A DNA stretch of 64,000 nucleotides. Origin: Candidatus Polarisedimenticolaceae bacterium. Its GTDB lineage: Bacteria; Acidobacteriota; Polarisedimenticolia; Polarisedimenticolales; DASRJG01. Below the pieces are notes generated by a model that was not told where the DNA came from, did not search any database, and saw nothing but the letters and a program-made list of their open reading frames with translations. The stretch is from contig DASVAW010000179.1 of the NCBI GenBank assembly GCA_036376135.1, positions 19,566 to 83,565 of the forward strand. Reading direction: 5' to 3'. This document shows positions 13,935 through 55,632 of this stretch, piece after piece (within the stretch, counting starts at the first letter, position 1; each line of letters starts with the position of its first letter). The position numbers and the translations under genes are program-made.

Positions 13935-13989
13935 CAGGGGACATGACCGGGGCCCGGGGCTCGCGGATCGTATACGCGGAGGTTCCGTC

Positions 13990-32937: not shown

Positions 32938-32997
32938 CGCTCCGTCGCGAGCTCCTCTCGCGACGGATGCTAAGGTGCGGCCGGAAGAGAGGTTTCC

Positions 32998-39398: not shown

Positions 39399-39450
39399 GG
39401 TCGACAGAGCATAGCCCGAGCCCCCCTTGCGGCGGTATCCTCCGCGCACG

Positions 39451-42180
39451 ATGACGCGACGCGCGAAGGGGGTCGTGGCGGGGGTTGCGGCCGTCGGCTT
39501 GTACGCCGCCTTCGGCTTTCTCATCCTCCCCGGCATCGTCCGATCGGTGGCGGTCGACCGCCTCGGGAAGCTCACGGGACGGAGCGTCTCGATCGCGAAG
39601 GTGCGGACCAACCCCTTCGCCGTCTCGGTCACCGTGCGCGACCTGAAGGTCGTCGAGCCGGGCGGCGAGATCCTCCTAGGATTCGACCGGCTCTACGCGA
39701 ACGCCGACATCCTCCACCGGCTGACGGGGTGGTGGGCGTTCGACGCGATCGAGGTCGACGGCGCGCGGGGCCTGCTCGTCCAGCGCCCCGACGGGTCCTT
39801 CAACGTCACCGACATCGCGAAGCGATGGCAGGAGACCCCGCGGGACCCCGGTCCGACCTCGCCGCCGGCGCCCCTCCGGATCGACCGCGTCCGCGTCGCC
39901 GGGGCGACCCTCGCCTTCCGGGACGAGACGCGCGCTCCGGCGTTCGGCAAGGTCCTGGGACCGTATTCGTTCTCGGTCGACGCGTTCCGCTCCGAGGGGC
40001 GCGAAGGAGGCCGGCACGCGTTCCAGGCGAAGACCGAGTCGGGGGAGACCCTCGCCTGGGACGGCACCCTCGCGATGGCGCCGCTGCGCTCGGAAGGGGA
40101 CCTGAAGGTCGAAGGGGTGGACGTCGCGAGGTACGCCCCGTATTTCGCCGACGCCGTCGGGTTCGACCTGAAGCGTGCCCGCTTCGACCTGAAGACCGGC
40201 TACCGCGTGAGCCTCGACCCGGCGTCCCGCGCGTTCGTCCTCGAGGGGCTCGAGACCACGCTGCGCGAGATCCGGCTGACCGAGCGCGGCTCGGACGAGT
40301 CCGTCTTCGAGAGCCCCGAGATCAAGGTGGCCGGGGCGAGCGTCGACCTGTTCGGGCGGCGCGCGGAGATCCCCGCCGTGGAGTCGAGCGCGGGACGTCT
40401 CCTGATCCGGATCGGCGCGGACGGGACGACGAACCTCGAGCGCCTGGCGCCCCGCGCGGAGGCGAAGCCGGCTCCCGAGGCACGACCGTTCTCCGTGCAC
40501 GTCGGGCGCGTCGCGTTCACGGGATATGCGGCGAGGTTCGAGGACCTTCAGACCCCGCGGCCGATCGGCGTCGATCTGAAGGACGTCTCCGTCGAGGCGA
40601 AGGACGCGTCGACGGACGCGACGAGCCGCCCCGACCTGACCGTCCGCCTCGGGTTCGACAACGGCGGGACGGTGGAGGCGACGGGGCAAATCGCGCTGCG
40701 GGCGCTCGCCGGATCCGCGCGCGCGACGCTCGTGGAGGTTCCCCTCGCGCCGTTCGACGCCTACCTCGAGGACACCTACGCGCTGCGGATCGTCGACGGG
40801 ACGGCTTCGGGAGCGGGGGAGGTGACCTTCGACTTCGGGAAGCCGGAGCAGGCGGTCTTCGAATACCGCGGCGACCTCGCCCTCGACGGCCTGCGCGCCC
40901 TCGACGCGGCCACGACGGAGGAGTTCCTCCGGTGGAAGGGCGTCGCGCTGGCGGGCGTGGCCTTCACCGCCGATCCGCCGTCGCTCGCGCTGAAGTCGAT
41001 CACGATCGCCGGGCCGGGCCTGCGCGTGGTCGTGCGGGAGGACGGCCGGACCAACCTCGCCGACGTGTTGCGTGTTCCGGTCGCCCCCCCGGAGGGACGC
41101 GTGGACGAGGAGGCCGACGCCCCCGAGCCGGAGACGCCGGTCGTCGAGCCCACCGTGGACGCCCCCGCCCTCGAGCGCCCCGTGACGATCGGTCGCGTGA
41201 CGATCCGCGACGCCGCGGTCGCCCTCGTCGACAGGCGCACGGAGCCCGACGCGACTTTCCGGCTGGACTCCCTCGCCGGAACTCTCGACCGGATCTCCAC
41301 CGACGACCTCTCCCGCGGCGACGCGTCGTTCACCGGCAAGTTCGACGGCGTCGCCCCCTTCCGGATCGAAGGACGCATCAATCCCCTCATCGCCGGCGAG
41401 AACAGCGACTTCACGGTGACCGCGCGCGGGATCGAGATGACGCGTTTCGGGCCGTACGCCGAGAAATGGCTCGGCTGGACGATCGCGCGCGGAAAACTCG
41501 ACCTCGATCTGCGCTACGCCATCGCCTCGCGGAAGCTCACCGCGACCAACGTCGCGACCTTCCTGCCGCTCGAGCTCGGGGAGAAGACGGCAAGCCCCGA
41601 CGCCACGAAGCTCCCCGTGAAGCTGGGTCTGGCGCTGCTGCGCGACGGCGACGGGAAGATCGTGGTGGACCTGCCGATCGAGGGGAGCCTCGACGACCCG
41701 AAGTTCCGGGTCCGGCGCGTGGTCCTTCGCGCGCTCGTGACCGTCTTCAAGAAGGCGGCGACCTCGCCCTTCAAGCTCCTCGCGGGGCTCGGAGGCGGAG
41801 ACGACGCCGGCAGCCTCGATCGCGTCGCCTTCGCGCCGGGCGTCGCGGCGATCGACCCGGCGGAGCAGGGGAAGCTCGCGTCGCTGGCCGGGGCGCTCGC
41901 CGCCCGGCCGGGTCTGTCCCTGGAGATCTCCGGCGGGGCGGGGGGCGAGGCGGATCTCGCCGCCCTGCGGCGCGCGGCGCTCCCGCCCGAGCCGGCCCCC
42001 ACCGCGGACGCTCTGGCGGCCGTCGCGATCGCGGAGGGGACGCTGCGCTCCCTGGCCGACGCGCGCGCGACCGCGGTGCGCGACTGGCTCGTGGGGGCGG
42101 GCGGGCTCGACCCGTCGAGGGTTCGCCTCGCGGGGGCGGCGGAGGCCGAGCCCGGCGTGCGCTTCTCCCTCTCCGATTGA
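39451..42180 (+). CDS. DUF748 domain protein (AsmA-like envelope protein)
   Basis: N-terminal anchor VVAGVAAVGLYAAFGFLILPGIV. SVSIAKVRTNPFAVSVTVRDLKV and repeated DLKxxxV-type modules are typical of DUF748. Confidence 0.75.
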   Translation: MTRRAKGVVAGVAAVGLYAAFGFLILPGIVRSVAVDRLGKLTGRSVSIAKVRTNPFAVSVTVRDLKVVEPGGEILLGFDRLYANADILHRLTGWWAFDAIEVDGARGLLVQRPDGSFNVTDIAKRWQETPRDPGPTSPPAPLRIDRVRVAGATLAFRDETRAPAFGKVLGPYSFSVDAFRSEGREGGRHAFQAKTESGETLAWDGTLAMAPLRSEGDLKVEGVDVARYAPYFADAVGFDLKRARFDLKTGYRVSLDPASRAFVLEGLETTLREIRLTERGSDESVFESPEIKVAGASVDLFGRRAEIPAVESSAGRLLIRIGADGTTNLERLAPRAEAKPAPEARPFSVHVGRVAFTGYAARFEDLQTPRPIGVDLKDVSVEAKDASTDATSRPDLTVRLGFDNGGTVEATGQIALRALAGSARATLVEVPLAPFDAYLEDTYALRIVDGTASGAGEVTFDFGKPEQAVFEYRGDLALDGLRALDAATTEEFLRWKGVALAGVAFTADPPSLALKSITIAGPGLRVVVREDGRTNLADVLRVPVAPPEGRVDEEADAPEPETPVVEPTVDAPALERPVTIGRVTIRDAAVALVDRRTEPDATFRLDSLAGTLDRISTDDLSRGDASFTGKFDGVAPFRIEGRINPLIAGENSDFTVTARGIEMTRFGPYAEKWLGWTIARGKLDLDLRYAIASRKLTATNVATFLPLELGEKTASPDATKLPVKLGLALLRDGDGKIVVDLPIEGSLDDPKFRVRRVVLRALVTVFKKAATSPFKLLAGLGGGDDAGSLDRVAFAPGVAAIDPAEQGKLASLAGALAARPGLSLEISGGAGGEADLAALRRAALPPEPAPTADALAAVAIAEGTLRSLADARATAVRDWLVGAGGLDPSRVRLAGAAEAEPGVRFSLSD

Positions 42181-42241
42181 CATCCATCGATTGCCTCGCG
42201 GGGGCGCGATCGTTACCGTTCGCCTCCACGCGGAGGTCCCG

Positions 42242-43486
42242 ATGCACCCGACCCGCGACGCCGACCCCGGAACCCAGGTCATCCACGCGGGCGCCGAGCC
42301 CGATCCCGCCACGGGGGCGATCTCGACGCCGATCTACCAGTCGTCGACCTTCGCCTTCCGCGACGCCGACGAGGGGGCGGCACGGTTCGCGGGGACCGAC
42401 CCGGGGTACAAGTACACGCGGCTGGGGAACCCGACGACGCGCGCCCTCGAGCGCTGCGTCGCCGAGCTCGAGGGGGGGCACGACGCGCTCGCGACCGCGA
42501 CGGGGATGGCGGCGGTCTCCACGGTGTTCCTCGCGCTCCTGAAGAGCGGCGACCACGTCGTCGGCACCGACGCCGTGTACGGCCCGACCCGGCTGCTCCT
42601 CGAAAAGCAGCTCGCGAAGTTCGGGATCGTCTCGACCTGGGTTCCGAGCGAGGACCTCGAGGCGGTGCGGGCCGCGATCCGGCCGACGACGCGGATCGTC
42701 TTCGTCGAGACCCCCGCGAACCCGACCATCAAGCTGACCGACCTCGCGGGGTGCGCGGCGATCGCGCGGGGGGCGGGGGCGCTCCTCGTCGTGGACAACA
42801 CCTTCTGCTCGCCGATCCTCCAGAAGCCGTTCCGGTTCGGCGCGGACGTCGTGATCCACAGCATGACGAAGTACCTCAACGGCCACAGCGACGTCGTCGC
42901 CGGGATCGTCGTCAGCTCGACCGCGACGCTCCACGCCGAGATCGGCGCGTACCTGCGCAGCCTCGGCGGGACCATGGATCCGCACCAGGCGTGGCTCGTC
43001 CTTCGCGGGATCCGCACCCTCGCGCTCCGGGTGGATCGCGCGCAGCGCACCGCGGAACGACTCGCCCCCTGGCTCGAGAAGCACCCCGCGGTGACGTGGG
43101 TGTCCTACCCGGGTCTCGCCTCCCATCCCCAGGCCGACCTCGCGCGTCGCCAGATGGCGGGGCCGGGGGCGATGATCTCCTTCGGGGTTCGCGGCGGCTT
43201 CGAAGCCGCGAAGGCGGTCTGCGACGGCGTTCGCCTCGCGACCCTCGCCGTCTCCCTCGGCGGCCTCGAGACCCTGCTCGAGCACCCGGCGTCGATGACG
43301 CACCGCGCGGTCCCGCGGGAGGAGCGCGAAGCGGCGGGGATCACGGACGACCTGATCCGCCTCTCCGTGGGGTGCGAAGGGGTCGAGGACCTCGAGGAGG
43401 ACCTCGACCGGGCGCTGATCCGGGCGTCAGCCGGACTTCCGCAGGGTGAGCGCGATGCCGCCCCCGTCGGCGTCCCGGTGCCCTAG
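42242..43486 (+). CDS. Cys/Met-metabolism PLP enzyme, methionine gamma-lyase / O-acetylhomoserine sulfhydrylase-like
   Basis: ISTPIYQSSTFAF, YTRLGNPT, VETPANPT, and the PLP-Lys block HSMTKYLNGHSD. The 3' 60 nt overlap the convergent tusA-like gene. Confidence 0.85.
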   Translation: MHPTRDADPGTQVIHAGAEPDPATGAISTPIYQSSTFAFRDADEGAARFAGTDPGYKYTRLGNPTTRALERCVAELEGGHDALATATGMAAVSTVFLALLKSGDHVVGTDAVYGPTRLLLEKQLAKFGIVSTWVPSEDLEAVRAAIRPTTRIVFVETPANPTIKLTDLAGCAAIARGAGALLVVDNTFCSPILQKPFRFGADVVIHSMTKYLNGHSDVVAGIVVSSTATLHAEIGAYLRSLGGTMDPHQAWLVLRGIRTLALRVDRAQRTAERLAPWLEKHPAVTWVSYPGLASHPQADLARRQMAGPGAMISFGVRGGFEAAKAVCDGVRLATLAVSLGGLETLLEHPASMTHRAVPREEREAAGITDDLIRLSVGCEGVEDLEEDLDRALIRASAGLPQGERDAAPVGVPVP

Positions 43487-43657
43487 GTAGACGTGCCCTT
43501 CCCTGTCGAGCAGCGCCCTCACGTCGAGCACGAAGAGCGGGTCGTCCCCGAGGACCGTGAGCTCCGTCCCCGGCGCCAGCGCCTTCAGGCGATCGCGGGT
43601 CCGGTTCGCGGGCACGGGGCACCGGAGCCCCCGCGTGTCGAGGATCTCGACGGACAT
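43427..43657 (-). CDS. tusA: TusA/SirA-family sulfur carrier protein
   Basis: 76 aa; LDTRGLRCPVP is the conserved CPxP active-site motif. Confidence 0.8.
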   Translation of the reverse strand: MSVEILDTRGLRCPVPANRTRDRLKALAPGTELTVLGDDPLFVLDVRALLDREGHVYLGHRDADGGGIALTLRKSG

Positions 43658-43705
43658 GCGCGGACCTTAACATCGGCGCTACCCTGCGCGGCCGGAGGAA
43701 CGACG

Positions 43706-45571
43706 ATGAAGCGCCTTCTCGCCACCGCACTGCTCTCCGCGGCGTTGCCCGCGCTCGCCGACGGCCGAAGCTGGAACCTCGACGAGATCTACCCGTCGGA
43801 GCAGGCCTGGACCGAGGCCAAGCAGGGGGCGCTCGCCGATCTCCCGAAGCTCGAGGCCTGCAAGGGCAAAATCGCGGCGTCGGCCGACGACCTGCACCGC
43901 TGCATCTCCCTCGCGTACGACCTCGACCGCAGGTTCACGCAGGTCGGGATCTACGCGAACATGCGCTACGACCTCGACACGCGCGTGGGCCGCTCGCAGC
44001 AGATGAACCTGGAGGCGCAGGAGGCGCGCACCCGGTTCGCGTCGGCCATGGCGTGGGTCCGTCCGGAGATCCTCGCCGCGGGAGCGGAGAAGATCCGCGC
44101 CCTCGTCGCTTCGGACAAGCGCCTCGCCCCTTACCGGCAGCCGCTCGAGGACATCCTCCGGCGCGCGCCGCACACCCTCGATGCGGCATCGGAGAAGATC
44201 GTCGCCGAGACCGCGATCATGGCCGATTCCGGCCAGTCGATCCGCGACGTCTTCACCAACGCGGAGCTTCCGTACCCCGAGGTCGTCCTCTCGAGCGGGG
44301 AGAAGGTCCGTCTCGACGCGGCGGCGTACACGAAGTACCGGGCCGTCTCCAACCGCGACGATCGCCTGAAGGTCTTCCGCGCGTTCTGGACGACCTACTC
44401 CGGGTTCACGCGGACCCTCGGCACGTCGCTCAACGCGCAGGTGCAGGCGCACGTCTTCCAGGCGAGGACGAGGAAGTTCGCCTCCTCGCTCGAGGCGTCG
44501 CTCTTCTCGGACAACATCCCCACGAAGGCGTACACGCAGCTGCTGTCCGACCTGCACGCGAACCTGCCGACGCTGCACCGCTACCTGAAGTTGCGCCAGA
44601 GGATGATGGGCGTGGACCGGCTGGGCTACGAGGACCTGTACGCCCCGATCGTCGGGAGCTACGACCGGACCTTCTCCCCCGAGGAGGCGGAGGCGCTGAC
44701 GCTCGAGGCCGTCGCCCCCCTCGGGAAGGACTACGTCGCCGGGTTGAAGACCGGGTTCGAGACCGGCTGGGTCGACTGGTTCCCGAAGACCGGCAAGCGC
44801 TCGGGGGCCTACAGCACCAGCGTCTACGGCCTGCACCCGTTCCAGCTTCAGAACTTCACCGGCCTCTACGAGGAGGTCTCGACGCTCGCGCACGAGGCGG
44901 GGCACTCGATGCACTCGTATTTCGCCGACAGGACGCAGCCGTACGCGACGCACGACTATCCGATCTTCATCGCCGAGGTCGCCTCGACCCTCAACGAGAA
45001 TCTGCTCGTCCACACGATGCTCGACAAGGCGAAATCCGACGACGAGCGGCTGTTCCTGCTCGGGAGCCAGCTCGACGGGCTGCGCACCACGCTGTTCCGG
45101 CAGGGACTGTTCGCCGAGTTCGAGCTGCGCGCGCACGAGATGGCGGAGAAGGGCGCCCCCCTGACCGGCGAGGCGCTCTCGAAGCTCTACCTGACGCTCC
45201 TGCGCGAGTTCTACGGGCACGACGCCGGCGTCTGCAACGTCGACGAGCTCTTCGCCGCGGAGTGGGCCTACATCCCGCACTTCTACTACAACTTCTACGT
45301 CTATCAGTACGCGACGAGCGTCGTCGCCTCCGTCTCTCTCGCCGACGGGATCCGCGACGAGATGCGGGGTCCGAAACCCTCGACGGCGCGCCGCGACGCG
45401 TACATCGCGATGTTGTCCGCGGGTTCGTCGAAATACGCCTACGACATGCTGAAGGACGCCGGGGTCGACCTCGCGACCCCCGGGCCGTTCCAGGCGGCGA
45501 TGCGCGAGATGAACAAGGTGATGGACGAGATGGAGGCGATCCTGGCCCGCAAGGGGGCGGGAACGCGCTAG
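43706..45571 (+). CDS. pepF: Oligoendopeptidase F family (M3B) metallopeptidase, secreted
   Basis: Signal peptide MKRLLATALLSAALPALA; zinc motif HEAGHSMH; about 620 aa. Confidence 0.9.
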   Translation: MKRLLATALLSAALPALADGRSWNLDEIYPSEQAWTEAKQGALADLPKLEACKGKIAASADDLHRCISLAYDLDRRFTQVGIYANMRYDLDTRVGRSQQMNLEAQEARTRFASAMAWVRPEILAAGAEKIRALVASDKRLAPYRQPLEDILRRAPHTLDAASEKIVAETAIMADSGQSIRDVFTNAELPYPEVVLSSGEKVRLDAAAYTKYRAVSNRDDRLKVFRAFWTTYSGFTRTLGTSLNAQVQAHVFQARTRKFASSLEASLFSDNIPTKAYTQLLSDLHANLPTLHRYLKLRQRMMGVDRLGYEDLYAPIVGSYDRTFSPEEAEALTLEAVAPLGKDYVAGLKTGFETGWVDWFPKTGKRSGAYSTSVYGLHPFQLQNFTGLYEEVSTLAHEAGHSMHSYFADRTQPYATHDYPIFIAEVASTLNENLLVHTMLDKAKSDDERLFLLGSQLDGLRTTLFRQGLFAEFELRAHEMAEKGAPLTGEALSKLYLTLLREFYGHDAGVCNVDELFAAEWAYIPHFYYNFYVYQYATSVVASVSLADGIRDEMRGPKPSTARRDAYIAMLSAGSSKYAYDMLKDAGVDLATPGPFQAAMREMNKVMDEMEAILARKGAGTR

Positions 45572-45948: not shown

Positions 45949-47151
45949 ATGGGCGCGACCGCCTTCATCTTCGTCACCGTGGTCCTCGACGTGCTCGCGA
46001 TGGGCGTCGTGATCCCCGTCCTGCCGCGGCTGGTCGAGGGGTTCCTCGGCGGCGACACCGCGAGCGCGGCGGAGATGTACGGGGTCTTCGGGACCGCCTG
46101 GGCGGCGATGCAGTTCGTCTTCTCGCCCGTGATGGGCGTCCTCTCCGACCGCTTCGGGCGCCGCCCCGTGATCCTGGCCTCGAACTTCGGGCTCGGGTTC
46201 GACTACGTGCTGATGGCGCTCGCCCCGAACCTCGGGTGGTTGTTCGCGGGGCGGGTGATCTCGGGGATCACCGGGGCGAGCTTTTCGGCGGCGTCGGCGT
46301 ACATCGCCGACGTGACGCCCCCCGAGCGGCGCGCCGCCGGGTTCGGGATGATCGGCGCCGCCTTCGGGCTCGGCTTCGTCCTCGGGCCGGCGCTCGGCGG
46401 CATCCTCGGCTCCGCGCACCCCCGGCTTCCGTTCTGGGTCGCGGCGGGGCTGACCCTGGCCAATGCGAGCTGGGGGCTGTTCGTGCTCCCCGAGTCGCTC
46501 CCCGCCGACCGCCGCCGCCCGTTCGACTGGTCCCGCGCGAACCCGATCGGAACCCTGCGCCTGCTCGGCTCGCACCGGGAGCTGCTCGGCCTCGCTTCGG
46601 TGAACTTCCTGTACCAGCTCGCGCACCAGGTGCTGCCGAGCGTCTTCGTCCTCTACGCGGGGTACCGGTACGCATGGAACGAGAGGACGGTGGGGCTGAC
46701 GCTCGCCCTCGTGGGAGTGGGGAGCATGGTGGTGCAGGGAGCGCTCGTTCGTCCGATCGTGGCGTGGCTGGGCGAGCGCCGCACCCTGATGTGCGGCCTC
46801 GCGGCGGGGGCCGCCGGGATGGCCGCGTTCGGCCTCGCCCCGACCGGAGGGTGGTTCTGGGCGTCGCTCCCCGTCTTCGCGTTCATGGGCTTGTACGGCC
46901 CCGCGGCACAGGGGATCATGACGAGGCGGGTCGACCCGTCGCAGCAGGGTCACCTCCAGGGGGCGAACACGAGCATCCTCGGCATCACGGGTCTCATCGG
47001 GCCCGGCATGTTCACGCTCACCTTCGCGGCCTTCATCGGAGCCCGCGCGGATCTCCACCTCCCGGGGGCGGCGTTCCTGCTCGCGGCGTTCCTTCTCCTG
47101 GGAGCGATCCCGCTGGCGGTCGCGGTCACCCGCGGGGAGGTGCCTCGATGA
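45949..47151 (+). CDS. MFS efflux transporter, TetA/TCR (tetracycline-resistance-type) family
   Basis: VLDVLAMGVVIPVLP, GVLSDRFGRRPVIL (motif A), GRVISGITGAS, and GLGFVLGPALGG closely follow TetA-class pumps. 12 TM segments. Confidence 0.85.
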   Translation: MGATAFIFVTVVLDVLAMGVVIPVLPRLVEGFLGGDTASAAEMYGVFGTAWAAMQFVFSPVMGVLSDRFGRRPVILASNFGLGFDYVLMALAPNLGWLFAGRVISGITGASFSAASAYIADVTPPERRAAGFGMIGAAFGLGFVLGPALGGILGSAHPRLPFWVAAGLTLANASWGLFVLPESLPADRRRPFDWSRANPIGTLRLLGSHRELLGLASVNFLYQLAHQVLPSVFVLYAGYRYAWNERTVGLTLALVGVGSMVVQGALVRPIVAWLGERRTLMCGLAAGAAGMAAFGLAPTGGWFWASLPVFAFMGLYGPAAQGIMTRRVDPSQQGHLQGANTSILGITGLIGPGMFTLTFAAFIGARADLHLPGAAFLLAAFLLLGAIPLAVAVTRGEVPR

Positions 47152-50100
47152 GCGCGCTGATCCCGGTCGGGCTGATCGCGGCGCTGCTGGTATGCGCGTA
47201 CCTGCTCGGACGACGCGGGGGCCGCGCCGTTCCCGCTCCGTCGCCCCAGGCTCCGGACGCGGCCGCGACGCTCTACCGGATCGCGGGGGAGCTCGTGCCG
47301 TTCTTCCAGGCGTCGGCGCACCCGAAGGACCTCCTGGACAATCCCGGTTTCCGCCGCGGCGTCGACCTGCTCCGCGGACCGTCGTGGTCGGCCGAGACGC
47401 TGCTGGGGTACTACGCCGGCGACAACGCCGTGATCGCGTGCCTCGCCCTCGAGGCGCTGTGCGCGCGCGCCGACGACGTCGACGTGCGTCCGGCGGTCCT
47501 CGCCGGGATCAACGACTTCAACCCCTGGAACCGGTACTTCTCCTTGCGCCTGCTCGCCGCGAAGAGCCCCGTCGGCGGGGAGCCGATCGTCGGACGCCTC
47601 CTGATGCGGCTGAACGATTCGTGGCTGTTCCCCGCGAACCTCCAGTTCCTCCGGGAGTTCCTCGCCACCCGGGAGGCGGCCGGCGAGCCGCCGACCCTCG
47701 GGACGCTGGTGGAGGGGCTCAACGACGCGTCGGCGACGACGCTCGGCTCGATCCTGGAGCGCCTGCCCGGCGAGCTCGCCGGACCGGTGGCGGCGGAGAT
47801 TGCCGCGTGGCGCGTCCGCAGCATCGACCGCGAGTTCCTGGCCTCGATCGGGCGGCTCTGGACCGCCGGCGAGGGGGAGCCGCTCGTCGAGCACGCGGGG
47901 CTCGCGCAGGCGACGTCGAGCGTGCTCGCGTCCATCCTCGCGCACCCGAGCCGATCGGTCCTTCTCGTCGGCGAACACGGCGTCGGGAAGTCCGCGGTCG
48001 CGCGGCGCGCGGCGGAGGCGCTGCTCGCGCGCGACTGGACCGTTTTCGAGACCCAGGCGACCGACCTCCTCGCGGGGATGTCGTATCTGGGGGAGCTCGA
48101 GGAGCGCGTCCGCGATCTCGTCGCGAAGCTCCGGGGAAGGCCGGTCCTGTGGTACGTCCCGGGGTTCCACATGCTCACGCTCGCGGGGCGGCACCGTTAC
48201 GGCCCGGCCAGTCTGCTCGACATGATCCTCCCGCACGTGGACAAGGGGGAGATCGTCGTCCTGGGAGAGACCTCGCCGTCGGGGTACGAACGCGTCGTGC
48301 AATCCGCCTCGCGCGTCCCCGCGGCCTTCGAGGTCGTGAGGATCGAGCCCACCTCGTCCGCCGCGACGCTCGACCTCGTCACGGCGTGGTCGTCGCAGCG
48401 CGCGCGGCCGGGAGCCGAGGCGCTCGTCGACGACGCGACGCGACACGAAGCCTGGCAGCTCGCGCAGCAGTACCGGGGGGACCGGGCCGCGCCGGGGAAC
48501 GTCCTGGAGCTGCTCGAGCGCACGCTCGCGCGCCTCTCCGCGGGCGGCGAGCGGCCCGCGACGATCACCCTCGGGGATCTCGTCGATACCCTCGGCCGGC
48601 TGACCGGACTTCCCGCGACGATCCTCGATCCCCGGGCGGGGCTCGACGTCGCGTCGCTGCGGGCGATGTTCGAACGGCACGTGCTCGGGCAGCCCGAGGC
48701 GGTGGACTGCCTCGTCGAGCGCGTGGCGATGGTCAAGGCGGGGGTGACCGATCCGAAGCGTCCGCTCGGCGTCTTCCTGTTCGCGGGGCCGACGGGGACG
48801 GGAAAGACCGAGATCGCGAAGACCCTCGCGCGATTCCTCTTCGGCTCCCCCGACCGGATGATCCGGCTGGACATGAGCGAGTTCCAGGGGCCCGAGTCGC
48901 TCAACCGGCTCCTCGGGGAGTCGGATGCGGACGCGGGAAGGACGGGGGCGGCGCTGGTCGACCGCATCCGCAAGGAGCCGTTCTCGGTGATCCTCCTCGA
49001 CGAGGTCGAGAAGGCGCACGAGAAGGTCTGGGACCTGTTCCTGCAGGTCTTCGACGACGGCCGCCTCACGGACCGGCAGGGCGCGACGGCGGACTTCCGC
49101 AACGCGATCGTGATCCTCACGTCCAATCTCGGCGCCGCGATCCCCAGCGGGGCGTCGCTGGGGTTCCTGGACGCGACGGGGCGCTTCTCGCCGTCGACGG
49201 TGCTCAAGACGGTGGAGAAGAGCTTCCGGAAGGAGTTCCTCAACCGGCTCGACCGCATCGTGGTCTTCCGGCCGCTCGCGCGGGAGACGATGCGCGACAT
49301 CCTCCGCAAGGAGCTCACCGAGGCGTTCGAGCGGCGCGGCCTCAGGCAGCGGGCCTGGGCCGTCGAGTTCGACGCCGGCGCGCTCGACCTGCTGCTCGAG
49401 CGCGGCTTCACCGCCGATCTCGGCGCGCGCCCGCTGAAACGCTCGGTGGAGCGGCACCTCCTCGCGCCGCTCGCATTGACGATCGTGGAGCATCGCGTGC
49501 CGGAGGGGGACCAGTTCCTGTTCGTGAAGGCCGAGCAGGGAAGGCTCGTCGTCGAGTTCATCGACCCCGACGCGCCGGACCCGGCGGCGCCCGCGGCGCC
49601 GGCCGACGCCCCGGCCGGCACCGACCGCTCCCCGGCGCGCATCGCCGTCGCCCCCGCCGGGACGGCGGCGGAGATCGCCGCCCTCGCGCGTGCGCATGCG
49701 CGCCTCGAGGAGCTTCTCGACGCGGAGGCGATCCACGCCGCGAAGGGGGACGCGTTGTCGCGGATGCGCGAACCCGCGTTCTGGGAGTCCCCCGACCGGT
49801 TCGCGCTGCTCGGCCGGATCGAGCAGCTCGACCGCATCGAGAGCGGCGTGCGGGCCGCGGGGTCGCTGCTCGAACGGCTCGAGTCCCGGGAGCGCGCTCC
49901 GCGCGACCTCGTCGGCCGGCTGGCGATGCAGCTGCACCTTCTGGATCTCGCCGTCCACGACGCGATCGAGGACCGGCCCTCCGACGCGTTCGTCGCCGTC
50001 GAGGCCTGGGGGGACGCGGGCTCGCCGTCCCGGGATTCGAACGCCTTCGCCGCGCGCGTGGCCGCCATGTACCGCGCCTGGGCGGATCGGCGCGGGATCC

Positions 50101-50474
50101 AGGTCGAGGATCTCCCCGCGCCGGCGACCGACGGGGTGTTCCGGGCCGCGTTCGGCGTCGCGGGGCACGGCGCCTTCTCGACCCTTTCTCGCGAAGCCGG
50201 CCTCCACGTGCTCGAGATTCCCGAAGGGGAGGGCCGGGGCGAGCGACGCGCGATCGCCCGCGTGAGGGTGGTCCCGCAGCCCGACGGTCCCGCCGACGGC
50301 CGCGCCGTTCTCGACGCCGCGGGCGCGGGGGCGCCTTCGATCGTGCGACGCTACCGCGAGCTGCCGTCTCCCTTGGTCCGCGACGTCGTTGCGGGATGGC
50401 GGAGCGGGAAGCTCGACAGGGTGCTCGCCGGGGACTTCGACCTGATCGCCGCCGCCGACGCGCGGTCGGGTTAG
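47148..50474 (+). CDS. Membrane-anchored ClpC/ClpB-like double-AAA+ ATPase fused to a GGQ-less RF2-like (PCRF) domain
   Basis: ATG 47148 overlaps the MFS stop (ATGA). TM aa 3-22. D1 has GEHGVGKS but a degenerate Walker B. D2 has [18 protein letters not shown], LGF loop and GARPLKR. The C-terminal 270 aa align by eye to RF2 domains 1/2/4. See findings. Confidence 0.8.
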   Translation: [1108 protein letters not shown]

Positions 50475-52909
50475 CCGAGCGCCTTCCTCGCCGCCTTGAC
50501 GCGGGGATCTTCCTCGCCGGCCGCGGGGGCGAGCGTATCGACTCCGCGCTTCAGCAGGGCCCGCGCCTCGTCCGGCCGGCGGGAGAGCAGCTGCAGGCCG
50601 AGGTCGATGCGCGTCGACGCGGTCTGGCGGTGATCCTCCCCGAGCGCCGCGGCCCGGATGCGCAGCGCGTCGCGCAGGGCGGCCTCGGCCCCGGCGGCAT
50701 CTCCCCGCGCGCCCAGCACGAGCCCGAGCGTCCCCAGGACGTGCGCGACGTCCGGGTGATCGCCGATCCCGGCGCGCATGAGCGTCACCCCCTCGCGAAG
50801 CGCAGCCTCCGCCTCCTCGAGTCGCCCCTGGCGGCGGAGGACCGCGCCGAGGTTGGCGAGTGTCCGCCCGACGGCGGGATCGGTCGGGCCGAGCGCTTCG
50901 CGCCGGATCGCCGCGACCTCGCGGAGGATCTCGATCGTCTTCTCCGGGCGTCCTGCCCGGAACTGGACGTTGCCGAGGTTCTCGAGGACGAGCGCGACCT
51001 GCGGATGGCGGTCGCCGAAGCGGCGCTTGGTGTTCTCCAGGATCTCGAGGTACGCCCGCTCCGCGCGGTCGAATTCCCCGCGCTGCATCAGGATGATGCC
51101 CAGGGAATTCCGGGACTGGTCCACGAGCGGGTTGTCGGGTCCGACGGCCGCCCGGTACGCCTCCACCGACTCGGTCGCCAGGACCTCGGCCTCCTCGAGC
51201 TTGCCCTGCGCTCCGCGAACGTCGGCGAGGAGCCGGAGGCCCTCCCCGAGGATCGAGGTGGGGGTCTGCGACGCGGCACGGGCGAGCGCGACCGCCTCCT
51301 CGGCGGGCGGCAGGGCTTCCTCGGGACGCCCGGAGAAGTAGACCGCCCACCCGAGCTCCGTGAGCCGTTCGGCGAGCGCCTCGCCCGGGGGGTCTCCGGA
51401 AGCGCGCTGCGCCGCGACCGCCTTCTTCGCGGCCTCGATCGCCTCGTCGTAACGGCCGACCGTGTGGAGGAACCGGCTGAGGCGTCCCCACGCCTTCGCG
51501 GTCTCCGGGTCGGTCGGGCCGAGATGTTCGGTGCGCAGCTCGATGACGCGGCGCAGGAGCGGCTCGACGGGCTCGAACTCCCCGACGTTGTGGAAGCTGA
51601 TGGCGATCGTCTCGCGGACCGCCGCCTCGACGATCGGCTGGGAGGCGAAGTCCTTCTCGATGCGGCCGAGGGAACGCTCGAGCGCCTCGAGGACGGTGAC
51701 CTTGCGCTCGCCTCCCTCGATGTACGGGTTCGGGGCCTCCAGGGTCTCCTGCAGGAACCGGTTGATCGCCGCCGCCTTGTCGGCCTCGGACTGCGCCCGG
51801 TCGCGCTCGGCGGCGATCCGGCGCGCCTGCCACGCCATCGTTCCCGCGAAGGCGACGAGAAGGACCACGAGCGTCGCGGCGAAGGCGGCGGGGAGGGGAT
51901 TGCGCCGGACGAGCTTGCGGATCTGGTAGAGGGTGCTCGGCGGCCGGGCGAGGATCGGCTCGAAGCAAAGCCACCGCCGCAGGTCCTCCGCGAGCGCGGC
52001 GGCGCTCCCGTAGCGGTCGTTCGGGTCCTTCTCGAGCGCCTTGGCGACGATCGTCTCCAGGTCCTCGTCGATGCGCCCCGTCCCCTTCCACACCTCGCGG
52101 AGCGGGCGCGGGCGCGCCTGCTCGATCACCCGCAGGGCATCCACGACGGTGAGGGACGAGAGGTCGTGCGGGAGGATCCCCGTCAGCATCACGTACAGGA
52201 TCACGCCGAGGGAGTAGACGTCCGTGCGCAGATCGACGGCCTCGGGGCGGCCGCGCGCCTGCTCGGGGCTCATGTACGAGAGCGTCCCCCGGATCGCGCC
52301 GACCTCGCTCAGCTGCGTCGCGAGGACGTCGCCGTCGGTGATCCGCGCGAGGCCGAAGTCGAGGATCTTGACGCGCGTCGCTCCCGCCTCGCCCGCCGGG
52401 ACGATCAGGTTCGAGGGCTTCAGGTCGCGGTGGACCACCCCGCGCTGGTGCGCGTAGTGGACCGCCTCGGCGATCTCCGCGAGGAGTCCGAGCCGCCGGC
52501 GAACCTCCGAGGGACCGAGCGGCCCCTCGTGACGTCGGAGGGATTCGGAGAGGGTCTCCCCGCGTACGAGCTCCATCGCGAAGTAGTGGCGCCCTTCCGG
52601 GGTGCGCCCCGATGCGTAGAGTCTCGCGATCATCGGATGCTCGAGCCGGGCGAGGACCTCGACCTCGCGCCGGAAGAGCATCACGTGCAGATCGTCGACG
52701 GCGACGTCGCCGCGCAGGACCTTCAGCGCGACGACGCGGCCTGGGGAATCCTGCTCCGCCTCGTAGACGACGCCCATGCCGCCGCGGCCGAGCACGCCGA
52801 GGATGCGGTAGTCGCCGATCCGGTCCGGATGGCCCTCCGCCGGGTGGGGCGGAGCGGGATCTCCGGCGCGGCTTCGCGTCAGGTCGTCGTCGGAGCGGTC
52901 GTTCGCCAT
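50471..52909 (-). CDS. Ser/Thr protein kinase with a TM segment and a C-terminal TPR array
   Basis: GRGGMGVVYEA, VALKVL, HRDLKPSNLIV, ILDFGLAR, YMSPEQ; TM AAFAATLVVLLVAFAGTMAW; multiple TPRs. Confidence 0.9.
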   Translation of the reverse strand: MANDRSDDDLTRSRAGDPAPPHPAEGHPDRIGDYRILGVLGRGGMGVVYEAEQDSPGRVVALKVLRGDVAVDDLHVMLFRREVEVLARLEHPMIARLYASGRTPEGRHYFAMELVRGETLSESLRRHEGPLGPSEVRRRLGLLAEIAEAVHYAHQRGVVHRDLKPSNLIVPAGEAGATRVKILDFGLARITDGDVLATQLSEVGAIRGTLSYMSPEQARGRPEAVDLRTDVYSLGVILYVMLTGILPHDLSSLTVVDALRVIEQARPRPLREVWKGTGRIDEDLETIVAKALEKDPNDRYGSAAALAEDLRRWLCFEPILARPPSTLYQIRKLVRRNPLPAAFAATLVVLLVAFAGTMAWQARRIAAERDRAQSEADKAAAINRFLQETLEAPNPYIEGGERKVTVLEALERSLGRIEKDFASQPIVEAAVRETIAISFHNVGEFEPVEPLLRRVIELRTEHLGPTDPETAKAWGRLSRFLHTVGRYDEAIEAAKKAVAAQRASGDPPGEALAERLTELGWAVYFSGRPEEALPPAEEAVALARAASQTPTSILGEGLRLLADVRGAQGKLEEAEVLATESVEAYRAAVGPDNPLVDQSRNSLGIILMQRGEFDRAERAYLEILENTKRRFGDRHPQVALVLENLGNVQFRAGRPEKTIEILREVAAIRREALGPTDPAVGRTLANLGAVLRRQGRLEEAEAALREGVTLMRAGIGDHPDVAHVLGTLGLVLGARGDAAGAEAALRDALRIRAAALGEDHRQTASTRIDLGLQLLSRRPDEARALLKRGVDTLAPAAGEEDPRVKAARKALG

Positions 52910-53049: not shown

Positions 53050-54915
53050 CTACCGGACGAGAGCGACCTCTCCATCCGTGGAGCAGAGGGCGAGCGCATC
53101 CCGCGTGGCGATCGTGTCCGGATGGTCGGGGCCCAGGGTGAGCTCGCGGCGGGCCAGGACCCGTCGGAGCAACGGCGCGGCCTCCCCGCACTTCCCGCCG
53201 CGGGCGAGCGCGAGGCCCACGAAGTGGCTGCTCCGCAGCGTTCGGGCGTTGTTCGGGTCGTTGTGTCCCTCGCGGATCGCCAGCGCCCGGCGGTGGTCCC
53301 GCTCGGCGGCGTCGAAGTCGTTCCGGGCGAGGTGGAGGTTCCCGAGGCTGTCGTACGCCGAGGCGATGAACTCGGGGTTCGGGATCGGCTCGCTCTCGTA
53401 GAGCCGGAGCGCGTCGCGGAGCAACGCTTCCGCCTCGTCGAGCCGGCCGACGTCCCGGAGCGCCGTCCCGAGGTTCTCCTTCGCGTAGCCGAGGGCGCGG
53501 GGCTGCGGCGGGGTCGGGGACGCCCGGAGTCGGTCCAGGATCTCCCGGAACAGCGGCTCGGCCTGCGCCGGTCGGCCCGCGACGACGTACAACTCTCCGA
53601 GGATCCGCGCGGACTCCGGGACCGCTCCGCGTTCGAGCAGCTCCCGCTCGGCGCGGTCGGCCCGCTCGAGCAGGCGGATCCCCGCGTCGCGCGCGCCCGC
53701 CTCGTACACGGCGAGCCCGGCGGACTGCAGCAACTCGACCTTTCGCAGCGGGTCGCCTTTCCATTGCCGGTCGATCTCGTCGACCACCGCGGCCACCATC
53801 GCCGGATCGTCGAGGCGCGAGTAACCCCACCCGGGAAGCCGTCGGAGGAGGACGCCCGTGAACGCCGCGGCGTTCGCCCGGGCCGACTCCGCCTCGGCGT
53901 TCGCGCGGTCGCGCTCGGCGGCGAGGCGGCCGGCGAGCATCGCCATCGCGATCCCGAACCCCGCGAGCAGCACGATCCCCGCGGCGAGCGCCGCGAACGG
54001 CCCCTTGTGGCGAAGGACGAGCTTGCGGAGCTGATACGCGGCGCTCGGCGGGCGTGCGGCGATGGGCTCGCCGGCGAGGTAACGCCCGACGTCGTCGGCG
54101 AGCGCCCGGACGCCGACGTACCTTCGCTCCCGGTCCTTCTCGAGCGCCTTGAGCACGATCGTCGAGAGGTCGCCGTCGAGCCGGCGCGCGATGGACTTCG
54201 GGGGTTCCTCCAGGATGCGACGCGGGACGTCGTAGGCCGGCGCATCCCTGAGGTCGAGCGGGTGCTCGCCCAGCAGCATCTCGTAGAGCAGCACCCCGAG
54301 GGCGTAGACGTCGACGCGGCCGTCGAGTGCGTCGGGATCGCCGGCCATCTGCTCCGGGCTCATGTACTCGAGCGTCCCGCGCACCGAGCCGAACTCCGTC
54401 GCGGCGGTCGCGTCCGCGCCCTCGGCGTCGACGATCCGCGCGAGGCCGAAGTCGAGGACCTTCGCGTGCGGCGGGTCGCCGGCGACGACGATGTTCGACG
54501 GCTTGAGGTCGCGATGCAGCACGCCGCGGTCGTGGGCGGTCGCGACGGCCTCCGCGATCTCGAGGAACAGGCGCAGCCGGTCCGGGATGCCGAGCTCGCG
54601 CCCGCGAAGCCACACGTCCAGCGCGGCGCCGCGGACGCGCTCCATGGCGAACCAGGGGAGCCCGTCGTCGGTTCGGCCGGAGGCGTACAGGGTCGCGATC
54701 CCGGGGTGGTCGAGCCGCGCGAGCGCGCGGATCTCCCGCCGGAACAGCGCGAGTGCCGTGTCCCCCGCGATCGCTCCCGCGCGCAGGACCTTGAGCGCGA
54801 CGATCCTGCGAGGCTCGTCCTGCTCGGCCTCGTACACGACCCCCATCGCCCCGCGTCCGATCTCGGCGCGGATGGCGAACGGCCCGATTCGGTCGGGGGC
54901 GGACGCCTCGGTCAT
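53050..54915 (-). CDS. Ser/Thr protein kinase with a TM segment and a C-terminal TPR array (paralog of the preceding gene)
   Basis: Start MTEASAPDRIGPF (ATG ending at 54915). GRGAMGVVYEA, HRDLKPSNIVV, VLDFGLAR, YMSPEQ; TM FAALAAGIVLLAGFGIAMAML. Confidence 0.9.
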   Translation of the reverse strand: MTEASAPDRIGPFAIRAEIGRGAMGVVYEAEQDEPRRIVALKVLRAGAIAGDTALALFRREIRALARLDHPGIATLYASGRTDDGLPWFAMERVRGAALDVWLRGRELGIPDRLRLFLEIAEAVATAHDRGVLHRDLKPSNIVVAGDPPHAKVLDFGLARIVDAEGADATAATEFGSVRGTLEYMSPEQMAGDPDALDGRVDVYALGVLLYEMLLGEHPLDLRDAPAYDVPRRILEEPPKSIARRLDGDLSTIVLKALEKDRERRYVGVRALADDVGRYLAGEPIAARPPSAAYQLRKLVLRHKGPFAALAAGIVLLAGFGIAMAMLAGRLAAERDRANAEAESARANAAAFTGVLLRRLPGWGYSRLDDPAMVAAVVDEIDRQWKGDPLRKVELLQSAGLAVYEAGARDAGIRLLERADRAERELLERGAVPESARILGELYVVAGRPAQAEPLFREILDRLRASPTPPQPRALGYAKENLGTALRDVGRLDEAEALLRDALRLYESEPIPNPEFIASAYDSLGNLHLARNDFDAAERDHRRALAIREGHNDPNNARTLRSSHFVGLALARGGKCGEAAPLLRRVLARRELTLGPDHPDTIATRDALALCSTDGEVALVR

Positions 54916-54934
54916 GGGGTAGGAATACCCCCAA

Positions 54935-55632
54935 ATGCGGGCGAGGATGCGAAAATTCCGGCGCGCGGAATCCGACCCGACGGAAGCGCCAATCGTCGTC
55001 GAGCGCTTCGAGGCCGGCGGGGAGGACCTCGGGGGGGTCTCCAATCCAGACGGCGTCCTGCGGACGCTTCTCGATCAGGCGGCGCGTCGGACCGGCGCCG
55101 AGCGCGGGCTCGTCGAGTCGGAGCGGTTCGGCCACCGGAAAGGGGCGTTCTCCGGGGCGGAGCAGGACGGGCCGGGGAAGGTGCAGGCTGCGGAGGGGGG
55201 GACGCTGTTCCTCGACGAGATCGGCGACCTTCCCCTCGAGCTTCAGCCCAAGCTCCTGCGGCTGCTCCAGGAGAGAACCTACGAGCGCCTCGGCGACGCG
55301 ACGCGACGGAACGGAAGGCCGACGTGCGCGTGGTCGCCGCGGGTCGGTTCCGACGCGACCTCCACGAGCGACTCAACTTCCTCCCGATCGCGATCCCGCC
55401 CGTGCGCGAGCGGAGGTCGGACCTCCCCGTGCTGCTGCGGCACGCCCTCGACGCGACGGAGGTAGGTCGGTGGATCGAACTTTCCTCCGCGGCCGAGCGG
55501 TGGCTGGTCGAGGTCGAGTACCTGTGGCCCGGAAACGTCCGCCAGGTCGAGCAGCTCGCCGCGAAGCTCAAGATCAGCGAGCCGGCGCTCTACAAGAAGC
55601 TCAAGGAGCACGGACCGGGGGGGAAGTCGTAG
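54935..55632 (+). pseudogene. Decayed sigma-54-dependent (NtrC/Fis-family) enhancer-binding protein: frameshifted and internally deleted
   Basis: Frame 2: [48 protein letters not shown]. Frame 1 after about 55310: [63 protein letters not shown]. The Walker A block is absent. Confidence 0.6.

Follow-up and report, generated by a model that had tools for sequence, protein, structure and literature searches.

A widespread bacterial protein family that combines a ClpA-type AAA+ ATPase with a release factor 2-like module lacking the GGQ domain

Introduction

What kind of protein joins a Clp-type AAA+ ATPase to a module resembling bacterial release factor 2 (RF2), and what might it do? The question is raised by a gene at 47148..50474 (+) in a 64,000-nt stretch of DNA from a Candidatus Polarisedimenticolaceae bacterium (contig DASVAW010000179.1, positions 19,566–83,565; this whole stretch is called the window here, and its GC content is 71%). 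An initial annotation, made by eye from the letters alone, had laid out the 1108-residue product as a membrane helix, helical repeats, Clp D1 and D2 modules, a Pro/Ala linker and an RF2-like C-terminus, a layout that the tools applied here support. Along the protein, which we refer to as Clp-RF, a membrane helix is followed by a HEAT/ARM-like solenoid, ClpA-type D1–D2 modules, a Pro/Ala linker and RF2 domains 1, 2 and 4. Clp-RF is no one-off but a member of a widespread bacterial family with this fixed architecture.

Results

The fusion is a single gene found in many phyla

The gene comprises 1108 codons plus stop in one uninterrupted open reading frame (ORF). A GGAGG lies 8 nt upstream of its ATG, which overlaps the stop codon of the preceding gene (ATGA), and GC content at third codon positions is 0.86–0.98 in each 300-nt block of 47148–50474, fusion junction included. 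The ORF reading and this uniform coding signal bear out the single unbroken frame of the initial annotation, whose coordinates for four motifs (GEHGVGKS, VLWYVPGFH, GPTGTGKT and LGF, described below) were all reproduced.

A scan with a hand-made degenerate DNA pattern for VRRYRxxPxPLVRD gave at least 120 genome loci. The RF-like module is encoded at 120 of the 120 loci listed, each with a significant tblastn match, and the N-domain lies at the distance expected in all those loci whose 8 kb extended sufficiently upstream (65 loci). The usual form at these loci is a single ORF of 1050–1300 aa, so the same fusion, for which a survey of homologues had been suggested, is present in many phyla: Acidobacteriota, Planctomycetota, Actinomycetota, Alpha- and Gammaproteobacteria, Gemmatimonadota and others. 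Hosts within Acidobacteriota include Pyrinomonadaceae, Blastocatellia and Thermoanaerobaculia; others are Planctomycetota, Gaiellaceae, Solirubrobacteraceae, Hyphomicrobium, Labrys okinawensis, Lysobacterales, Burkholderiales, Gemmatimonadales, Eisenbacteria and Calditrichaceae. Members apparently occur in the cultured species Labrys okinawensis (L014, an incomplete ORF at the edge of its locus) and Lysobacter enzymogenes (P0102, an RF-like entry of 245 aa). A profile of the RF module searched against 1.84 billion cluster representatives (clusters built at 50% identity) returned 396 matches at E ≤ 1e-30 and 894 at E ≤ 1e-10. Its position was judged in the best 150 of the 396, where it is always C-terminal, in proteins of ~1050–1290 aa, in a short form of ~880–920 aa, or in fragments. 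Family members carry the database labels 'AAA family ATPase', 'ClpC' and 'PCRF domain-containing protein'.

This distribution bears directly on whether the ORF could be an assembly chimera, two genes fused by a sequencing error, or a decaying pseudogene. Nothing at 47148–50474 speaks in favour of such an artefact: the coding signal is uniform across the junction, and dozens of independent genomes and ~400 clusters carry this fusion as one ORF of ~1050–1300 aa. Some database entries are split, with the gene broken into 2–4 called ORFs in public assemblies (L001, 5789–9164; L002, 5356–8792), and these resemble frameshift errors of their own assemblies. The short entries P0023 and P0007 are pieces of frameshift-split genes, and the stand-alone 'PCRF domain-containing protein' annotations that come from split genes, the 245-aa P0102 entry of Lysobacter enzymogenes among them, probably arose from frameshift errors and do not denote genuine small proteins. 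We regard an artefact as vanishingly improbable; the chimera that the initial annotation wished to see excluded is excluded by conservation of the fusion in more than 100 genomes. Given this distribution, the fusion is ancient and under selection, and no product of assembly.

Conservation was measured as the mean top-residue frequency per segment in 37 full-length homologues. It is highest in RF domain 4 (0.81), followed by D2 (0.74), D1 (0.56), RF domains 1 and 2 (0.53 each), the N-domain (0.44), the Pro/Ala linker (0.44) and the linker that replaces RF domain 3 (0.43).

The C-terminal module retains RF2 domains 1, 2 and 4

The homology of aa ~840–1108 to RF2, first proposed by eye, was borne out by profile and structure searches. 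Pfam PCRF (PF03462) matches aa 957–1031 with E = 1.2e-7 and 32.2 bits against a gathering cut-off of 24, and NCBIfam prfB aligns aa 847–1022 to model positions 5–191. The full-length RF equivalogs are not reached: prfB scores 30.3 bits against a cut-off of 370, and prfA 23–24 bits against 400–423. A profile built from 30 family sequences matched RF2 chains in the PDB with E = 4e-15 (RF2 residues 9–205) and RF1 at ~1e-9, RF2 thus scoring above RF1. The AlphaFold2 model of aa 835–1108 (predicted local distance difference test, pLDDT, 92.9; predicted template modelling score, pTM, 0.89) contains, in order, a helical bundle, a β-sheet/helix domain, a short helix, and a β-β-α unit packed on domain 2. 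When this model was compared with the PDB using Foldseek, all 50 listed matches were of RF2/RF1 type, from bacteria and from mitochondria (mtRF1/mtRF1a), the best with E = 1.3e-12. TM-scores of these matches are modest (0.45–0.55), probably because one domain is missing and the others are posed differently relative to each other. As the top 50 PDB matches were RF1/RF2-type structures only, with no entry for aeRF1, Pelota or Balon among them, an aeRF1-superfamily fold was set aside. Together, profile and model indicate that RF2 domains 1, 2 and 4 are present in their native order.

Domain 1, a helical bundle at aa 838–942 (49659..49973, +), is assigned from the profile alignment, which starts at RF2 residue 9, from the modelled helices and from the Foldseek matches to RF2/RF1; it keeps an F/W...R...L...E motif. 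Domain 2, at aa 943–1043 (49974..50276, +), carries the Pfam PCRF match and includes MYRAW and GLHVLE; the PDB profile alignment ends at RF2 S205. The loop equivalent to the SPF codon-reading tripeptide reads IPEGEGRGE, and across the family its length is 6–25 aa and none of its residues is conserved, in agreement with the original view that the SPF/PxT tripeptide has been lost. The stretch aligned to RF2 QAGSGGTEA, the GGxE-containing tip of helix α5, is likewise unconserved in the family.

Domain 3, the GGQ peptidyl-hydrolase domain, is absent as a whole. A 21-aa linker (50277..50339, +) takes its place, joining the last strand of domain 2 to domain 4; it is modelled as a short helix. Equivalent linkers in the 37 full-length homologues are 21–31 aa long, and 0 of the 21 columns are conserved at ≥90%. 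The 1108-aa protein contains neither a Pfam RF-1 domain match nor a GGQ anywhere, and the only GGQ among the 37 aligned homologues lies at aa 1030 of P0162. The short linker between VVPQPDG and IVRRY noted at the outset (~50277–50339) thus stands, and no GGQ segment had been overlooked. With domain 3 and GGQ gone and both the SPF loop and the α5 tip unconserved, the module, judged by its sequence, is unable to hydrolyse peptidyl-tRNA or to recognise stop codons as an RF does, and cannot act as a termination factor.

Domain 4, at aa 1065–1108 (50340..50471, +), bears the signature IRxY..P...V.D.R....l..vl.G.lD. A profile of the last 42 residues alone has as its best PDB match residues 318–352 of Bacillus subtilis RF2 (35 aa, ungapped, E = 0.03), and in this ungapped alignment the B. 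subtilis protein has the same residues as the invariant ones of the family (R, Y, P, V, D, G, V, G, D). That the most conserved segment of the protein has invariant residues matching RF2 points to selection on an RF-type surface and not to a decaying relic. By this measure the RF module appears functionally central.

A ClpA-type core with a degenerate D1 and a catalytically intact D2

The AAA+ core was read from HMMER alignments to ClpB, ClpC and ClpA structures and from two family alignments, one of 51 genome-derived ORFs and one of 37 database proteins. Pfam AAA_2 matches aa 538–703 (7e-48), ClpB_D2-small matches aa 710–789, and AAA_16 matches the P-loop of D1. NCBIfam ClpA aligns contiguously over aa 271–783, and PDB matches to ClpB, ClpC and ClpA range from 1e-70 to 1e-83. 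The core scores 306–319 bits, far below the ClpA/ClpB/ClpC equivalog cut-offs of 993–1232. Alignment to Clp proteins also bears out the reported lack of an M domain.

D1 (aa 263–470; 47934..48557, +) was defined by HMMER alignment to ClpB and ClpA D1 and is degenerate. Its Walker A motif GEHGVGKS (47970–47993, +) is retained, with the P-loop lysine K281 invariant across the family, as is a pore-loop-1 with a tyrosine (48072–48107, +) that aligns to ClpB AGAKYRGEFEER; the pore-loop aromatic is mostly Y in the family and in some members F, W or H. VLWYVPGFH (48144–48170, +) replaces Walker B, aligning to ClpB VILFIDELH with the catalytic Asp changed to Pro338. P338 is found in ≥90% of the family, and the adjoining W335 is invariant. 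The arginine fingers are gone, RRFQ being aligned to AAFE, and this loss is family-wide. The earlier suspicion that D1 is ATPase-dead is therefore supported throughout the family, by the Walker B Asp-to-Pro change and the missing arginine fingers.

D2 with its small domain (aa 500–805; 48645..49562, +; Pfam AAA_2 and ClpB_D2-small, and alignment to ClpB/ClpC/ClpA) has its catalytic motifs intact. Walker A GPTGTGKT (48786–48809, +) and Walker B (48990–49019, +) are invariant in the alignment of 37 database proteins, as across the family are the Asn of sensor-1 TSN (49113–49133, +), the NR.DR arginines of NRLDR (49242–49256, +) and the GAR of sensor-2 GARPLKR (49422–49442, +). The pore-1 loop position, aa 587–603 (48906..48956, +), aligns to ClpB RLIGAPPGYVGYEEGG and is acidic and variable, without an aromatic residue. 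In comparison with the ClpB GYVG segment GAPPGYVGYEEG, none of the intact family sequences aligned has the aromatic (L021, which is frameshifted and misaligned, was set aside). The description of D2 as canonical thus holds for all of its ATPase motifs but not for its pore-1 loop.

The loop following sensor-1 carries the tripeptide LGF (aa 671–673; 49158..49166, +), which aligns exactly with SIGL in the BAP chimera (PDB 5ofo), a ClpB that carries a grafted ClpA loop. G672 and F673, invariant in the family, follow an L, I or V, or in 2 of 50 cases a P. This supports the placement of LGF at the position of the ClpP-docking IGL of ClpA, and [LIV]GF, which has the motif of such a loop, is a putative ClpP-docking loop.

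The initial annotation had further called the protein a probably ClpP-competent unfoldase, a claim weakened by the family-wide lack of the D2 pore-loop tyrosine, which ClpA needs for robust unfolding (PMC8666677). In ClpA, the D1 pore loops start substrate engagement and the D2 pore loops are needed mainly for unfolding stable native substrates (PMC8666677). Seen against this division of labour, the pattern in Clp-RF fits an engagement-competent machine with weak unfolding power, and robust unfolding by Clp-RF is doubtful on the residues present.

A Pro/Ala-rich flexible linker of low conservation, read from the sequence at aa 806–837 (49563..49658, +), connects D2 to the RF-like module.

The N-terminus combines a membrane helix and an all-α solenoid

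Residues 3–22 (47154..47213, +) form a hydrophobic helix with a Kyte–Doolittle mean of 2.59 over 18 aa, followed by GRRGGR. An equivalent helix is present in 31 of the 37 full-length homologues, most with an Arg/Lys-rich flank; hydropathy and conservation thus agree with the membrane helix first noted here. From the helix and its mostly basic flank, we predict a signal-anchor with the bulk of the protein in the cytoplasm.

The N-domain that follows (aa 38–262; 47259..47933, +) is modelled by AlphaFold as an all-α, HEAT/ARM-like solenoid of 15 helices (pLDDT 92.8), which supports the helical repeats proposed at aa ~40–260. Its best Foldseek match in the PDB is not significant (E = 0.18), and many of the listed matches are HEAT, armadillo or alphaRep repeats. 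The N-domain has no Pfam match, and Clp_N is not among the Pfam matches of the protein; given this and the solenoid model, a Clp_N identity was ruled out. A homologue search with the N-terminal 265 aa gave no matches, probably since the word index was swamped by Ala-rich words; the full-length query recovered the family. Several loci (L017, L055, L089, L102, L109 and related loci, several of them from Pyrinomonadaceae) encode a low-complexity E/T/P/A-rich insert of ~50–150 aa between the membrane helix and the solenoid, which implies a long flexible tether in these members.

Short forms and sister proteins

The short form of the family, of ~880–920 aa, occurs at L008, L025 and L104 (Gaiellaceae and Solirubrobacteraceae) and in P0196, P0230, P0274, P0281 and P0315. 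The loci come from Thermoleophilia-type Actinomycetota and keep the [LIV]GF loop and the RF-like module; the short form seems to be without the N-terminal solenoid and possibly without the membrane helix. Sister proteins of ~1100 aa (P0168, P0172–P0178 and P0169–P0171) have the same N-region, D1 and D2 layout, exemplified by the 1106-aa protein P0172 of Urbifossiella limnaea, labelled 'ClpB'. Their C-terminal extensions of 330–370 aa have no Pfam match and, by hhalign and hidden Markov model search, are weakly RF-like in P0169–P0171 and not RF-like in the others. These sequences suggest that the C-terminal slot may be an exchangeable targeting or specificity module.

Genomic context

Turning to the surroundings of the gene, a major facilitator superfamily (MFS) transporter gene (45949–47151, +) lies immediately upstream, its stop overlapping the Clp-RF start. 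Further upstream are genes for an M3 oligopeptidase (43493–45571, +), a Cys/Met pyridoxal phosphate (PLP) enzyme (42191–43486, +) and a DUF748 protein, AsmA-like with an OmpA tail (39427–42180, +). Downstream, two genes for Ser/Thr protein kinases with long tetratricopeptide repeat (TPR) regions stand in tandem and converge on the Clp-RF gene; the first (50471–52909, −) overlaps its stop by 4 nt and the second lies at 53050–55044 (−).

Translational coupling to the MFS transporter through the ATGA overlap was considered and rejected, as orthologues carry other genes at this position. The closest orthologue (L123, 86% identical) keeps the DUF748, PLP enzyme and M3 genes and has a DUF900/α/β-hydrolase gene in place of MFS, and a 51%-identical orthologue has unrelated neighbours, with a gene for a coenzyme A-binding protein at the MFS position. 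The MFS link is thus incidental. The survey of synteny proposed earlier revealed, at the at least 120 loci, no gene neighbour conserved with the Clp-RF gene, and the lineage-specific neighbours (the few inspected by eye resemble M48- and S46-type peptidases and a TPR regulator) were discounted as functionally uninformative. An anti-phage defence system was also rejected: in PADLOC nothing but the D2 AAA+ core matched, in part, to ClpB-like components (DolB, PDC-M37B).

Elsewhere in the window, two DEAD-box RNA helicase genes (7306–9261, +, and 32974–34317, +) lie far from the Clp-RF gene, and no link to it was established; the product of the first resembles DeaD/CsdA and has DbpA and dimerisation domains. 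A gene at 13714–18198 (+) encodes a ~1495-aa protein that combines numerous FG-GAP repeats with a MopE-type metal-binding motif. Such FG-GAP/MopE proteins, the tandem kinase genes and the 71% GC lend the window a Myxococcota-like character.

Discussion

An apparently undescribed protein family

Known bacterial systems of ribosome rescue and quality control comprise tmRNA–SmpB, ArfA/ArfB/BrfA, PrfH, RqcH/RqcP, MutS2/SmrB and HflX. To our knowledge, these factors include no AAA+ unfoldase that an RF-like module recruits, and we know of no bacterial-type RF paralogue described as lacking the entire GGQ domain. The initial annotation knew of no characterised protein with this architecture, and indeed no description of a Clp/AAA+–RF fusion was found in the literature searched, about 8.3 million full texts. 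The RF survey of Burroughs and Aravind (2019), which is comprehensive and centred on the peptidyl-hydrolase domain that the Clp-RF family lacks, does not mention a Clp or membrane-anchored form. Clp-RF is neither a genuine RF1/RF2 (no GGQ domain, no codon reading, a sub-threshold score) nor a bona fide ClpA/ClpC (no Clp_N, a dead D1, no D2 pore tyrosine); by its sequence it is best called a combination of two known kinds of protein, a Clp ATPase and a release factor.

The finding matters in that the family is real, widespread, apparently undescribed and mechanistically odd, while its function is inferential. Its hosts belong to abundant soil and sediment groups: Acidobacteriota, Planctomycetota, Thermoleophilia, Hyphomicrobiales and Lysobacterales. 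If the RF module does bind ribosomes, the family would represent a new class of ribosome-directed ATPase and a natural experiment on what RF domains 1, 2 and 4 are capable of without catalysis. Since members apparently occur in cultured species, the hypothesis is directly testable.

Proposed function and alternatives

The characterised class-I RF homologues RF1, RF2, PrfH and ArfB/ICT1 act on ribosomes, and in RF1 and RF2 domains 2/4 contact the 30S decoding centre and domain 1 the L11/stalk region. By analogy, we tentatively favour, at a little short of an even chance, a ribosome-directed machine in which the RF-like modules recruit ribosomes with a free A site and D2 remodels the captured complex. 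A hexamer would be tethered at the cytoplasmic face of the membrane, with D1 as a nucleotide-bound ring for assembly and substrate engagement and D2 as the sole motor. Its six flexible RF-like modules would probably keep the ancestral docking of RF domains 1 and 2/4 in the A site and stalk region, a placement proposed because of the known RF1/RF2–ribosome complexes. Docking would require neither codon specificity nor catalysis, so that stalled, vacant or idle ribosomes would be the targets, and ATP hydrolysis by D2 would then remodel the captured complex. Possibly, an unstructured polypeptide such as a nascent chain could be engaged via the D1 pore and handed to ClpP on the [LIV]GF loops; stable proteins would not be forcibly unfolded. 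RF-like A-site ligands that lack GGQ and are blind to codons have precedent in Balon and Pelota/Dom34, which we count in favour of this proposal. The earlier hypothesis, that the protein recognises stalled, membrane-engaged ribosomes and extracts nascent chains, is likewise an extrapolation from homology.

Several observations weigh against a ribosome-directed machine. Ribosome binding is extrapolated from homology, with no independent link to translation. All RF elements with a defined role (GGQ, SPF/PxT, the α5 tip and the region of the domain 3–4 switch loop) have been lost, and perhaps only the fold remains. The RF-like module is near neutral, with a median isoelectric point of about 7, and an electrostatic argument for RNA binding was dropped for this reason. 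Six-frame ORF clustering across the at least 120 loci found no conserved neighbour, the largest cluster spanning 12 loci and being lineage-specific, largely Pyrinomonadaceae, and no translation, ClpP or rescue gene was a conserved neighbour among these loci. No ring pairs ATP-hydrolysis motifs with a pore-loop aromatic, which makes hand-over-hand translocation into ClpP mechanistically doubtful: the pore-loop tyrosine stands only in the hydrolysis-dead ring and hydrolysis is retained only in the tyrosine-free ring, an arrangement that challenges the standard threading picture for Clp-type double rings. A partner other than ClpP is also conceivable for the [LIV]GF loop. Finally, with the RF module on the ClpP-proximal D2 face and the D1 entry pore on the membrane-tethered side, the geometry is awkward for drawing a chain from a ribosome that the RF module holds.

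One alternative is an exaptation away from the ribosome, in which Clp-RF is a membrane-proximal Clp-type quality-control or regulatory ATPase in an FtsH-like niche, the RF fold serves as a binding, adaptor-like or autoregulatory domain, and the solenoid selects substrates. The disappearance of each catalytic and codon-reading RF motif, the lack of a translation link in the gene context, the non-basic module, and the ~1100-aa sister proteins, which share the D1–D2 core and have weakly RF-like or non-RF C-termini, are all consistent with such a role. It accounts less readily for domain 4 being the most conserved segment and keeping RF2-matching residues, or for the retention of domain 1 with its F/W...R...L...E motif, domain 1 being the stalk- and RF3-facing bundle of RFs; moreover, we know of no characterised PCRF-domain protein with a non-ribosomal role. 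We consider exaptation somewhat unlikely, and give a lower probability still to a tether for ribosome parking or hibernation, in which the module plugs the A site of idle ribosomes at the membrane and ATP hydrolysis by D2 loads or releases these ribosomes without degradation. The latter draws on the same RF homology as the ribosome-directed machine and has in Balon a precedent for a codon-independent A-site plug without GGQ. A dead D1 and a D2 without a pore-loop aromatic are more easily reconciled with a switch or clamp that does not thread than with an unfoldase, and six valencies on flexible linkers, with a conserved membrane anchor, would suit such a tether. Parking nevertheless leaves the invariant ClpA-type [LIV]GF loop and the retained D1 pore-loop tyrosine unexplained, and the at least 120 loci show no association with hibernation-factor genes.

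In its broadest form, the ribosome-directed proposal is that Clp-RF is a membrane-tethered, ATP-driven ribosome-surveillance machine in many phyla, whose RF paralogue brings a ClpA-like ring, perhaps together with ClpP, to ribosomes whose A site is empty or aberrant. It would then be a single-polypeptide counterpart of Pelota–ABCE1 or Vms1–Cdc48 and would add a new branch to the quality control or turnover of ribosomes in bacteria, a generalisation that we put forward as possible though on the doubtful side.

Comparison with known systems

Clp-RF shares with ClpA/ClpC the two tandem AAA+ modules, the absence of an M domain as in ClpA, the intact Walker A/B motifs, sensors and arginines of D2, and a [LIV]GF at the IGL position. 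It differs in having a membrane anchor and, in place of Clp_N, a HEAT/ARM-like solenoid, a D1 without Walker B and arginine fingers, a D2 without the GYVG tyrosine, and an additional RF-like C-terminus of 270 aa. With RF2 (PrfB), it shares domains 1, 2 (PCRF) and 4, homologous in sequence and fold; unlike RF2, the Clp-RF module lacks domain 3 with GGQ, has an unconserved SPF loop and α5 tip, and is joined to a membrane-tethered ATPase. PrfH, the partner of RtcB2, is likewise a specialised bacterial-type RF paralogue that has lost normal stop-codon reading. By published descriptions it is a small stand-alone protein that lacks domain 1, keeps GGQ and is operonic with RtcB, whereas Clp-RF keeps domain 1 and has lost GGQ. 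No RtcB-like or other conserved partner gene was present among the neighbour clusters inspected (at least 120 loci), and with domain 1 present and GGQ absent, a PrfH–RtcB rescue/repair module was set aside.

Among systems that resemble Clp-RF in concept, Pelota/Dom34–ABCE1 and Vms1–Cdc48 combine an RF-family A-site ligand with an ATPase on stalled ribosomes, a likeness of functional analogy only. Vms1 recruits the AAA+ ATPase Cdc48 and is itself catalytically active. Dom34 is without the catalytic glutamine and does not read codons (PMC6514570). Pelota/Dom34 and Vms1 have the unrelated aeRF1 fold, and their ATPases (an ABC ATPase or p97) are separate polypeptides. Balon is a GGQ-less, codon-independent RF-like protein of the bacterial A site (PMC10901736); it has the aeRF1 fold, stands alone, works with EF-Tu and keeps the middle domain that reaches the peptidyl transferase centre, whereas Clp-RF has the bacterial RF fold, has deleted the domain that reaches this centre and is fused to an AAA+ ATPase. 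FtsH, as an N-terminally membrane-anchored cytoplasmic AAA+ hexamer, parallels the presumed hexamer of Clp-RF and its possible coupling to proteolysis. FtsH differs in its single AAA+ ring, fused metalloprotease and aromatic pore loop, and its homology to Clp-RF is confined to the AAA+ core.

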